DNA of 64,000 nucleotides. Source: a virus. Its lineage: Duplodnaviria > Heunggongvirae > Uroviricota > Caudoviricetes. Below, piece by piece: positions 1 through 3,000 of this stretch (within the stretch, counting starts at the first letter, position 1; the number at the start of each line of letters is the position of its first letter). The position numbers are program-made. The DNA is taken from IMG/VR virus record IMGVR_UViG_2939521961_000004. The stretch is one strand, 5' to 3'.

Positions 1-3000
1 TTACCAGTCAATCCAGAGTGGACCGTGTTCAGCGTAAATATAACTGTACACATCCAGATTATATTTGTGGTCTGTTAAGAACAGGCCGCAAATACATGCC
101 GAAGCTTCCAGTGCAGCGGCTCTGTTACTGAATAACCATGTAGCAACATTCCAGCGTTTTTCTGCATCCCAGTCTTTCTCAAGGCCTGATACCATGAAGA
201 AACCGTTAGTGTTGCCATCAAATAATTCTGTTTCCAAATTTTTAAGCAATGCCTGATGGACTCTTGCCAGGTATTCCGCCGGAATTTCGCCACGAATTCT
301 AATGAGATTGTCATAAACAAACATGTTCCCCGCATATGGCGATTTTTCTTTCTTGTTTTTTAAACCAGCATCATGAGCAAACTGATCAATTTCTTCTTCC
401 GTTGGTTTCGTATTGATGTTTTGCGCTGTCGTTTCTGCAATTTTATTTGCCATACTCTCTGAGTCGTGTTTATTTATAGACGCACAGAAATACAATCCGG
501 TAAACGCATCGCGCACATTACGAGCCATATTATCAGTGTCTTTTTTCGTTACCGATTCCAATTCAAGTTCGTTCAGACGATGACGAAGTGTGTGTGCTGC
601 AATCTCCTGGATTGAAGGAGGTAAATCTTTAAATTCCATCGTCAACCTCATCAGTCAGTGTTTCTGGCTAACCAGCGACGCGCGCCAGCTTCAGTTTTAA
701 ACGTTTTGCTTTTGGTATACGTCATCGCGGTGAACGTACCGTCCTGGTTGGGAAACACGCCGCATACCAGAGATTCGTTGTTGCCAAGATTGAGCGTATC
801 CATGTTGACCTCATTCCCCCTTAACGCCGGGTCGCGGAACTAAAAACCTGCTGCGCTGTTATACAAAGTGTTCCCGCCGTCATGTTCATACGCCTCGGGC
901 TGGCTACTTAACCCCTGACCACTGCTTGGTAACTCGAAGTATTGCCCGGCGTTCTGTGGGGCGGGGTGGGTGGTTGGTGTATGTAATCTACAAGTAAAAA
1001 CTGTTTTGTGTCAACAGTTTTTAATTGTTGTTTTGGGCAAAAAAATCCCTCGAAAGAGGGAGTATGAAAATTGTTCAACTCAGATAGAGAAGGGAAATTG
1101 TCGCCGAGAATGTGTCACGCTTACAATCTCAATGCTTGAAGCAGCTACTCTGTACAGGATTATGTAGTTAGGGTGGGTCACGATCTCTCTCAATCCAGAA
1201 ACCCGTTCGCTTGGTGGATATAAGTACGGATGCTCAGATAGAGGTAATACCGATGTTTCAATGCGTATTTTTAGTCTACGTGCTGCCGGTGGGTTCTCCT
1301 TGGCGATGTAAGTTATGATCTGGCGCAAATCATCGCGAGCAGACGGTAGCCATAAAATGGGTAACATTACTCGCTCTTGTTAGTTACAGCAATTTGAGCA
1401 ATAAGATTTTCCATTTCAGCCATTACCTCGTCATGTGGAATTGCGGGGCGAGTGTCTGCAAGGCTTGACGTTACTTTAGTGCGCAACCATTCGTTGTAAC
1501 TGTTTTCTTGTTCGGTAGTTTCGAATTCTGAAACTATCGGAGAAAGGGCTGTACCCATGGCATAACTCCTCTTCTTGTACTGTGGTCACGCCCGGCGGCT
1601 TTTTTGTGCCGCCAGCCACCTAGCAATGGTTTCTTCCATTGATTTTTTCTTGTCTTTGATTTCTTGAAGCATTTTTTCTTGGTCTTCCTCAGGAAACGCA
1701 CTAAAAGCTTGGAGCAGTTCGCGTTGGCGAGGACCAATTTTCATCGTGTCAGGGGTGAAAATTTGCTCACACTCTTCAGGAGGCAATAAAAACCAATGCA
1801 ATGGATGCCCTGAAACCTCAACCAGTTTATCCAAACTTGAGGCTTTAGGTGTAGCCTTACCGCTGACCCATTGTTGAACAGTTTGTTGTGTCACACCAAT
1901 TCTACGGGCAAGCTCAGCCTGGCTCCATCCAGTTTCCTGAAGAAGCTTGCTGATTCTGTACATAGATACTTCTAGGGCGCTCATCATTATTCAATTTTAC
2001 AGGTAAATACTGTTAAAAGCATCACAATAAAAAACTGTTGATTGCATACAGTTTTTTATTGTAGGCTTTGCTTATAGTTTTTAGAGGAGGGCAAAATGCT
2101 AGATAGCACTCGCGAAAAAATTAGGCAGAAATACACTCAGGCTGAAATAGGTCGTTATATGGGGGTCGCTCAACAGACTGTTTGGCAATGGTTTAGCTTT
2201 GGCGTTCCCCCAAAGCAGGTAATTCCGTTATGCCAACTAATGAAGTGGGAAGTTACCCCGCATGAAATCCGCCCAGATATTTATCCTAACCCAACCGACG
2301 GTTTACCTGTTGGATGTAAGGTTAACACATCAAATGCGCCGGAGTTGATTCATGAAAATCAAGCATGAACACATCCGCATGGCGATGAATGCCTGGGCGC
2401 ATCCGGACGGCGAAAAAGTACCGGCTGCGAAAATTACCAAAGCGTATTTCGAGCTGGGAATGACGTTCCCGGAACTGTATGACGACAGCCATCCGGAAGC
2501 CATGGCTCGCAATACTCAGAAAATTTTCCGCTGGGTGGAGAAAGACACTCCTGATGCGGTTAAAAAAATTCAGGCGTTGTTACCAGCGATCGAAAAAGCG
2601 ATGCCGCCTCCGCTGGTGGCCCGAATGCGCAGCCACAGTTCCGCTTATTTTCGGGAGTTGGTAGAGACGAAGGAACGGCTGGTGAAAGATATTGATGATT
2701 TCGTTGCATCAGCGATCGTTCTGTTCGATCAGATGAATCGTGGTGGCCCGGCAGGAAACACTCTGGCTGTGCATTAATTGGGTAATAAATATGAGTAATG
2801 ACAAAAAATTGACACTGAGCGTTTACGAAAACAGTCCGCACATCTGGCGTGGCGGTTTATCTGATGTGGAGCTGGCAGAGTGGTTGATACATAAAGCTAA
2901 TGCGCTGCTCTGGCGTTTGTCAGCCAGAGAACAGCGCAAGGAAACCAGAATAAAGCTGGCTGATGCAGAAGCGTGTGCCGGGCTTATTGAGGATTATACA

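Follow-up and report, generated by a model that had tools for sequence, protein, structure and literature searches.

Background

In phage lambda, the nut site combines a boxA (CGCUCUUUAACA-like) with a boxB hairpin that has a GNRA-like pentaloop. The put RNAs of the HK022 type mediate factor-independent read-through of terminators, an activity blocked by mutations in the zinc-binding domain of the RNA polymerase beta' subunit, and two cis-acting structured leaders, RARE of Salmonella mgtCBR and EAR of Bacillus eps, favour transcription into a long operon with no need of a dedicated phage protein. Here we analyze a conserved structured RNA element that occurs twice in the window, i.e. the whole 64,000-nucleotide stretch of the Caudoviricetes record IMGVR_UViG_2939521961_000004, where each of two prophages (A and B) carries one copy between its early-left promoter PL and its first leftward gene. 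A preliminary description of this DNA, made from the sequence alone, had suggested a nut- or put-like antitermination site or a leader RNA. That reading is right in kind, the element being a non-coding leader RNA of PL, and wrong in family, since it belongs neither to nut nor to put.

Early antitermination in lambdoid phages that lack the N protein is still an open question, and put-like elements were only conjectured in a 2025 survey of lambdoid phages (PMC12315714). The element described here is a concrete candidate for how Rac-like, N-less lambdoid phages carry RNA polymerase through their early operons.

A conserved leader in two prophages

The conserved block lies on the minus strand in both prophages, at 817-977 in prophage A (copy A) and at 49657-49819 in prophage B (copy B). 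A repeat finder aligns the two copies at 96% identity over 99 nucleotides (873-971 versus 49715-49813), and a global alignment of the whole block gives ~86%, whereas the flanks are at background level (50% on the first-gene side and 56% on the promoter/operator side). These values bear out the initial impression of near-identical copies with unlike neighbours; the extent first assigned to them (840..975 and 49680..49815) marked a real block, the true span of which is slightly larger. Short open reading frames (ORFs) through the block part ways past MNMTAG, in agreement with the divergence after six codons that had been noted.

Directly 5' of each copy is a strong sigma70 promoter, which lies within inverted repeats resembling operators. 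In prophage A the promoter read from the sequence (985..1014, minus strand) has a -35 box TTGACA at 1014-1009, an 18-nucleotide spacer and a -10 box TAGATT at 990-985; it is embedded in an inverted-repeat operator, with an inferred start at ~978-980. The promoter of prophage B, identified by a promoter scan (49824..49852, minus strand), comprises TTGACC at 49852-49847, a 17-nucleotide spacer and TAAATT at 49829-49824, with an inferred start at ~49817. Beyond the promoters lie cI/DicA-type repressor genes (1586-1987 in A and 50632-51030 in B, both on the minus strand), and in each prophage a toxin-antitoxin-like pair is found between the repressor gene and PL. The first leftward genes at this position are DUF1391/ydfA, a 216-amino acid ORF without a Pfam match, or a 118-amino acid ORF. 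Copy A is followed by ydfA/DUF1391 (803-651), and copy B by other ORFs and then by a ydfA-operon-like set that includes DicF, dicB and recE.

The same placement recurs beyond the window. The upstream sequences fall into 55 distinct contexts with a wide range of immunity specificities. In 36 of these, the element is preceded at a distance of 1-12 nucleotides (mode 7-8) by the end of a promoter that agrees with the consensus at 8 or more of 12 positions; the element itself begins 0-10 nucleotides past the inferred PL start. Because these promoters end 1-12 nucleotides before the first model position, the 5' end of the RNA essentially coincides with the start of the closing helix P0 described below. 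The block is the 5'-terminal leader of the early-left transcript, which confirms the leader RNA suggested for this site: a conserved, covarying structure at PL.

Architecture of the core domain

The core of ~110 nucleotides consists of the closing helix P0 around a long arm (P1a-P1b-P2) and a 34-nucleotide joining strand J. In P0, the extreme 5' end of the transcript is base-paired with the stretch that immediately follows an invariant GACGGC(A). The arm is built of P1a, an internal loop, P1b, a bulge of 4-5 nucleotides on the 5' side (AGAAC-like) and P2, which is capped by the conserved 15-nucleotide loop CAAUACNNNGAGUUA. J runs between the arm and the 3' strand of P0 and has the consensus AAGUAGCCAGCCYGAGGCRYAHGAACAUGAMGGC.

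In copy A the covariance model matches 867..977 on the minus strand (108.5 bits, E 5e-33). P0 pairs 970-968 with 875-873, and the arm occupies 911..967, with covariation and with constrained folds giving the same arm in every lineage. Its parts are P1a (ACCCC 967-963 / GGGGU 915-911), P1b (CCAC 959-956 / GUGG 922-919), the 5' bulge AGAAC (955-951) and P2 (GCCGGG 950-945 / CCAAGC 929-924). The 15-nucleotide P2 loop CAAUACUUCGAGUUA spans 930..944; its three central positions vary freely among lineages, and nine positions are invariant in 58 distinct variants, which were retrieved by patterns requiring no loop base. J of copy A (AAGUAGCCAGCCCGAGGCGUAUGAACAUGACGGC, 876..909, delineated from alignments) holds a Shine-Dalgarno-like GAGG at 896-893, an AUG at 883-881 and a possible 3-bp GCC/GGC hairpin. 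The match in copy B (49707..49819, minus strand; 123.5 bits, E 5e-38) comprises P0 (49812-49810 with 49717-49715), the arm (49809-49754), the P2 loop (49786-49772) and J (49751-49718).

As variants were gathered by sequence patterns, part of the invariance of J is imposed by retrieval. The first pattern, which yielded 92 variants, required neither GAACAUGA, nor the AA before GUAGCC, nor the P2 loop, nor the AUG of J; a later pattern left GUAGCCAGCC unrequired, and a further lineage (L200) was found by a pattern without the GUAGCCAGCC block.

The sequence of P0 differs widely between lineages (CAGCAAC/GUUGCUG, ACAAC/GUUGU, CACCCC/GGGGUG, CCAACC/GGUUGG, UCACU/AGUGA, AACCC/GGGUU and AAGCA/UGCUU), and the Symbiopectobacterium copies have one additional 5' hairpin. 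In the window P0 is only 3 bp long, with CCCGCC/GGCGGG as an alternative pairing. The GC-rich stretch GGGGCGGGG, which had been cited in favour of an antitermination site or leader RNA, corresponds to the complement of the C-rich 5' sides of P0 and P1.

Evidence for RNA structure and against coding

Two of the checks proposed in the preliminary description, folding of the minus-strand transcript and covariation analysis across related prophages, point to a conserved RNA structure. Single-sequence folds of eight lineages with unlike helix sequences agree in architecture. For P2 we used a gap-free alignment anchored on the conserved loop, with nothing fitted to the structure: all seven pairs changed on both sides, and the covariation score of 0.364 compares with 0.180 for shuffled alignments (none of 500 reached it) and with a maximum of 0.193 for slid controls. 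In a 20-sequence MAFFT seed, 20 of the 24 modelled pairs changed on both sides (score 0.384 versus 0.145). The model-aligned set of 56 distinct sequences from nine genera shows such changes in all 24 pairs, with 82% of cells paired versus 57% after shuffling and a score of 0.488 versus 0.153 (slid controls at most 0.087), counts that lean toward structure because the alignment was fitted to the model. Unguided RNAalifold recovers P0, P1a and P1b, with 12 of 15 pairs compensated, and adds the invariant GCC/GGC mini-hairpin within J.

The helices differ in how far they stand out from base composition. P1 differs significantly from shuffles in the lineages of Pectobacterium, Serratia, Symbiopectobacterium and Arsenophonus (z -2.1 to -3.3) and not in the E. 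coli type, where C-rich and G-rich strands pair by composition alone; the E. coli-type P0 and P1 are pairings of C-runs with G-runs that shuffles reproduce. The shuffle test for P0 gave a weak result. Inspection by eye for tertiary pairing, either of the variable loop nucleotides NNN with the RYAH of J or of the loop halves with J, revealed no consistent covariation. A hammerhead-like reading of CUGAGG..GAAC was rejected, as the stem II spacing and U4 do not fit and no Rfam ribozyme matches.

The preliminary description had held that conservation acts at the nucleotide level, and would have yielded to the finding that the block is the end of a conserved protein-coding gene. Among reading frames anchored on the invariant block on both strands, none is open in all variants, the best being open in 33 of 52; indels of 1-2 nucleotides shift the frames, including those between the core and the first gene, and the helices compensate without a codon pattern. 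The non-coding assignment stands.

It is highly improbable that the block has no RNA function at all, being instead a recombination linker between mosaic modules, a protein-binding site on DNA or the end of a coding gene. The element does sit exactly at the mosaic junction between the immunity module and the variable early-left genes, and some public annotations draw a coding sequence across it. Compensatory changes in 24 of 24 modelled pairs across nine genera are nevertheless unexpected for a linker or a DNA site, no frame is open throughout, and the names of the annotated coding sequences (e.g. 'head-DNA stabilization protein D') are mutually inconsistent.

On the plus strand, J (window 873-905) contains a 9-codon ORF, ATG TTC ATA CGC CTC GGG CTG GCT ACT TAA (MFIRLGLAT), in which codon 3 is always hydrophobic (Ile, Leu, Val or Met). 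As a Shine-Dalgarno sequence is lacking and synonymous sites do not vary, this ORF does not account for the conservation and is probably a coincidence.

Distribution

The block is present in 3891 of 5426 complete E. coli genomes (~72%), at 7371 places and in up to 8 copies per genome, and in 15 phage records; this recurrence is far beyond chance. Among phages it is found in Tritos, Evi and vB_Apl-pPE4. Scans for exact patterns recovered it from over 120 IMG/VR contigs, and those of one genome per species from Escherichia, Shigella, Serratia, Pectobacterium, Symbiopectobacterium, Winslowiella, Superficieibacter, Arsenophonus and 'Ca. Phlomobacter'. The element also occurs at Sakai Sp4, and in K-12 MG1655 it lies in the Rac prophage between racR and a small ydaG-like gene, where no feature is annotated. 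The Rho-dependent terminator 'trac' of Rac has been located inside racR and is distinct from the element.

Rfam 15 gave no gathering-score match to the element in the window, no relevant match at E <= 10 within 600-1150, and no match in four related loci. As Rfam also misses the put RNAs of HK022 and HK639, absence from this database alone is not proof of novelty. Literature searches by sequence, by Rac and antitermination, and by DUF1391 and RNA-motif topics returned no description of the element. It constitutes a widespread structured-RNA family for which we found no description.

Alternative modules downstream of the core

Among 139 distinct instances, the core is followed by a 3' module in 108 and by a boxA in 25, and the two never occur together. 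In phages without N, the nut slot is filled by the 3' module. Its parts are a variable hairpin, which has grown to ~100 nucleotides in Pectobacterium, a linear block GCAGCAGG..GUUCCGCC, in which GCAGCAGG is separated by a gap of 4-9 nucleotides from GUUCYGNC, a small hairpin P5, and the first gene's Shine-Dalgarno sequence. Covariation is seen in the stem of P5 (CCCC/GGGG, CCC/GGG, GCCG/CGGC, GCCAG/CUGGC, GCGU/ACGC), and the P5 loop is GGCGUUAA or GAAAGA-like.

Both copies in the window are of the 3'-module type, which is that of N-less, Rac-like prophages. The module of copy A (816..872, minus strand) comprises the variable hairpin region (872-857), GCGCAGCAGG (856-847), GUUCCGCG (840-833) and P5 (CCC 831-829 / GGG 820-818, with the loop GGCGUUAA at 828-821); next come the ydfA Shine-Dalgarno sequence (812-809) and ATG (803-801), on the same strand. 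In copy B (49657..49706, minus strand) the corresponding parts are GCAGCAGG (49698-49691), GUUCCGCUA (49684-49676) and P5 (CCCC 49675-49672 / GGGG 49663-49660, again with the loop GGCGUUAA).

The 25 boxA-type instances come from Arsenophonus, Phlomobacter and some Symbiopectobacterium. Here a canonical boxA CGCUCUUUAACA lies 23-49 nucleotides past the core and is followed by boxB (CGCUGAAAAAGCG or a variant), by a lambda-like N leader UUUGGGGUGUGUGA and by an N-like ORF with an arginine-rich motif; N-like ORFs are confined to the boxA-bearing lineages. Homology between lambda (L176, 520-700, minus strand) and the contigs L111 and L128 extends from boxA through the UUUGGGGUGUGUGA block, and the Arsenophonus-type leaders are equivalent to the lambda N leader with the core added at the 5' end. 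Since these leaders match lambda from boxA on and the core is extra, the core is a separable unit that is compatible with N and nut.

In five Arsenophonus/Phlomobacter contigs (L128, L137, L156, L159 and L168) two cores are found on the same strand 1.8-2.7 kb apart, each with its own promoter, boxA/boxB flavour and N-like ORF. Their arginine-rich motifs are of two types, starting with MCNFHGYDNARCRRHERR.. and MATIIFKPKKDNVKSRRLAKQ.., and the pairs look like tandem PL-leader-nut-N cassettes.

Proposed function and competing explanations

We tentatively propose that the leader may work in cis, shielding early-left transcription against polarity or premature termination; antitermination would be a plausible function. 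In such a mechanism the domain would engage a conserved host machine while emerging from RNA polymerase. Its target in cis would be the transcription unit that carries it, and early-left transcription would become resistant to premature termination or polarity via RNA polymerase or Rho. The logic would be put-like with a fold unrelated to put, and the 3' module would stand in for nut in phages without N. A cis-acting modifier fits an element that is the first RNA to leave the polymerase at PL and that combines covarying helices with invariant unpaired nucleotides. Among co-occurring phage proteins the repressor family alone is present in all lineages, and no other universal phage protein was found across them. 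Together with the unpaired nucleotides that are invariant from Escherichia to Arsenophonus, this leads us to expect a host partner or a self-contained activity.

Two features of the window are consistent with this proposal. In prophage B, the DicF RNA (48602-48653, minus strand; Rfam, 75 bits), which is encoded ~1 kb downstream of the copy B leader, ends in a short terminator (48619-48604) that lies between PL and dicB/recE, as would suit read-through. The dicB and DUF1482/ydfD genes (48239-48427 and 48054-48221, minus strand) follow 3' of DicF in the same early-left operon. The absence from the window of any N-like domain and of boxA beyond chance is consistent with N-independent read-through.

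Several results weigh against cis-acting protection. In the 4 kb that follow each of 106 leader copies, the sense strand shows no enrichment of strong intrinsic terminators; strong terminator-like hairpins there number 32 on the sense strand (399 kb) versus 180 on the opposite strand, a ~5.6-fold difference. The covariance-model search found no second copy in the rightward operon of either prophage. Coexistence of the core with N/nut in 25 instances implies that the core alone is not simply a substitute for N. The invariant Shine-Dalgarno-like sequence and AUG of J point to the ribosome rather than to RNA polymerase, and the folding energy of single sequences is unremarkable (z +0.75 and +1.11). 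Finally, wobble counts leave the strand unfixed, as modelled pairs contain 30 G.U versus 58 A.C cells, and in 49 of 52 variants the folding energy is lower for the reverse complement.

The last two observations would favour a functional RNA made from the opposite (window plus) strand, antisense to the PL leader and, for instance, damping early-left expression, and convergent plus-strand genes do exist in some contexts (49301-49507 here; sieB in Rac). We regard this as very unlikely. When only well-paired columns are considered, G.U and A.C cells are about equal (~20 versus ~19), and single-variant changes to G.U occur on the sense strand too (L009, L150). No conserved promoter or terminator was seen for the plus strand, whereas the element boundary tracks the sense start in 36 promoter contexts, and in Arsenophonus-type phages the element lies inside the sense N leader. 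It is on these two grounds, promoter context and inclusion in the N leader of some phages, that we assign the sense strand.

The start site in J suggests a translation-linked leader, which is possible but rather doubtful. J would then be an exposed ribosome-binding site (GAGG, 9 nucleotides, AUG), used in one of two ways. A ribosome on a short leader ORF could couple translation to transcription and prevent Rho-dependent polarity in the long leader; alternatively, folding or a ligand could hide the site in a riboswitch-like manner, P0 being the helix that switches. Every variant retains GAGG-N9-AUG, among them the 92 from a pattern that left the AUG free, and the 3' strand of P0 falls in codons 3-6. 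The mini-ORF stops 9-10 nucleotides before boxA in the nut-type leaders, and in K-12 Rac and copy A it stops in the P5 loop, 14-20 nucleotides before the first gene. On the other hand, the length of the ORF (6 to more than 40 codons), its frame and its stop are not conserved, in Tritos-type variants it fuses to ydfA, and the upstream half of J (AAGUAGCCAGCC) is invariant well beyond the needs of a ribosome-binding site. The leader does not behave as a leader-peptide attenuator, because the start site is kept while ORF length, frame and sequence are not, and no terminator follows. The riboswitch-like traits, an aptamer-like layout of closing helix P0 and invariant junction nucleotides in J with its Shine-Dalgarno-like sequence, are not accompanied by a conserved terminator/anti-terminator platform after the leader, and the variable downstream genes suggest no ligand.

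A processed or stable 5' domain could instead act in trans as a small RNA (sRNA) or a decoy, e.g. by titrating a host RNA-binding protein or a defence factor. Stable RNAs typically have such a compact, self-closed form with the 5' end buried in a helix, here P0; J and the P2 loop, both invariant and single-stranded, could serve as seed or binding sites; E. coli genomes hold up to 8 copies; and the element is by its position the first RNA made on infection or induction. This explanation is unlikely, since no terminator or conserved processing site bounds the domain and no target was identified. In the part of the Sakai table of Hfq-bound sRNAs that was examined the element is not listed, a weak test because the prophages are repressed under those conditions. 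Readings other than those discussed here are fairly unlikely as a group.

Whatever its function, the element would be a structured RNA domain of very high abundance, present in ~72% of complete E. coli genomes and marked by 34 unpaired nucleotides that do not vary, and the operon it heads holds the kil/dicB/DicF inhibitors of cell division and the recET recombination genes. Its presence in K-12 between racR and ydaG makes it directly testable with reporter fusions and with existing RNA polymerase, nus and rho mutants.

Other features of the window

The toxin-antitoxin-like pair of prophage A (1080-1558, minus strand) has the appearance of a RelE/ParE-type toxin with its antitoxin, and its Sakai homologue is annotated 'plasmid stabilization system protein'; that of prophage B (49920-50585, plus strand) is HigB/HigA-like by eye. 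A terminator-like hairpin CTCCCTCTTTCGAGGGATTTTTTT is found at ~1040-1066 (minus strand), just upstream of the -35 box of the prophage A PL; judging from its placement, it may block transcription arriving from the repressor and toxin-antitoxin genes before it enters the leader, as the timm terminator does in lambda.

On the plus strand, Rfam matches identify a sok-like antitoxin RNA (8168-8342), two copies of STnc100 (13394-13584 and 63413-63585), two clusters of three tRNAs in the late regions (13068-13314 and 62392-62640) and an ALIL pseudoknot, the frameshift site of IS3-type elements (43872-43988). At 41354-41830, three head-to-tail copies of a 141-bp unit share 96-97% identity.

Comparison with known regulatory RNAs

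Prophage-encoded sRNAs of E. coli (DicF, AgvB/AsxR, Pas, STnc100) share with the element that they are conserved, non-coding and present in many genomes. They differ in location, DicF lying within the operon and the remaining ones in the late region, past PR', and none of them matches the element. The AgvB/AsxR anti-sRNAs and the Pas sRNAs, considered as a lead to its identity, were discarded on this ground, as the papers place both downstream of PR' and not PL; EcOnc22-24 were rejected as well, as they map to tail genes. The likeness to RARE and EAR is one of kind only, that of a cis-acting structured leader; no relation in sequence or structure is expected, any effect of the element on Rho is hypothetical, and EAR, which is represented in Rfam, does not match it.

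Comparison with put was based on two covariance models, R1 for the element and R2 built from HK022 putL, HK022 putR and HK639 putL. The consensus of these three RNAs (GAACGGCSCG...GUCGG...GGCGKGNYMAGGANGA...CAAU) forms two stem-loops in ~70 nucleotides, and R2 recovers them at 72-101 bits. In the window R2 yields only matches with E > 1, none of them at the leaders, and R1 has no match in HK022 or HK639 at E <= 1, so that membership of the put family, one of the two families first suggested, is not supported. A weak R2 match (20.8 bits, rough E 0.03) was observed in the Arsenophonus-type viral contig L111 (5695-5763, minus strand), ~1.6 kb upstream of its core.

The element nevertheless resembles put in being promoter-proximal in the early-left operon of an N-less lambdoid phage and in starting within a few nucleotides of the PL start, as reported for putL (PMC9378689). 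Both have covarying helices and conserved unpaired nucleotides without an evident phage protein partner, and HK639, like the prophages studied here, has a left copy only. In contrast to the two put hairpins, the element comprises a closing helix, a long arm and a 34-nucleotide strand in ~110 nucleotides, to which the 3' module is added; it has no rightward copy, whereas HK022 has putR, and it coexists with N/nut in some phages.

The nut site, the other family first suggested, fits no better. A boxA scan of the window gave 6 matches with 2 mismatches versus 8.7 expected by chance, none of them in the element; boxB is likewise absent from the window, and no N-like Pfam domain was detected in the window, including the first leftward genes. 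The element model finds no match in the lambda immunity region, and the lambda PL leader is without the ~90-nucleotide structured core that directly follows the promoter in Arsenophonus-type leaders. What the element shares with lambda nutL is its slot between PL and the first leftward gene and the layout of its 3' module, in which a conserved linear block precedes a small hairpin with, in some lineages, a purine-rich loop (GAAAGA). In addition, some Symbiopectobacterium prophages and those of Arsenophonus and Phlomobacter carry the core fused 5' of a true boxA/boxB and a lambda-like N leader. The GCAGCAGG..GUUCCGCC block itself bears no resemblance to boxA. Taken with due doubt, it is possible that the element represents a second class of self-sufficient phage leader RNA, unrelated to put, that would bind RNA polymerase, the ribosome or Rho immediately on being transcribed and reprogram the whole early-left operon, that would be borne by most E. 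coli genomes, K-12 Rac among them, and by prophages of at least nine enterobacterial genera, and that could be combined either with N/nut or with an N-independent 3' module.

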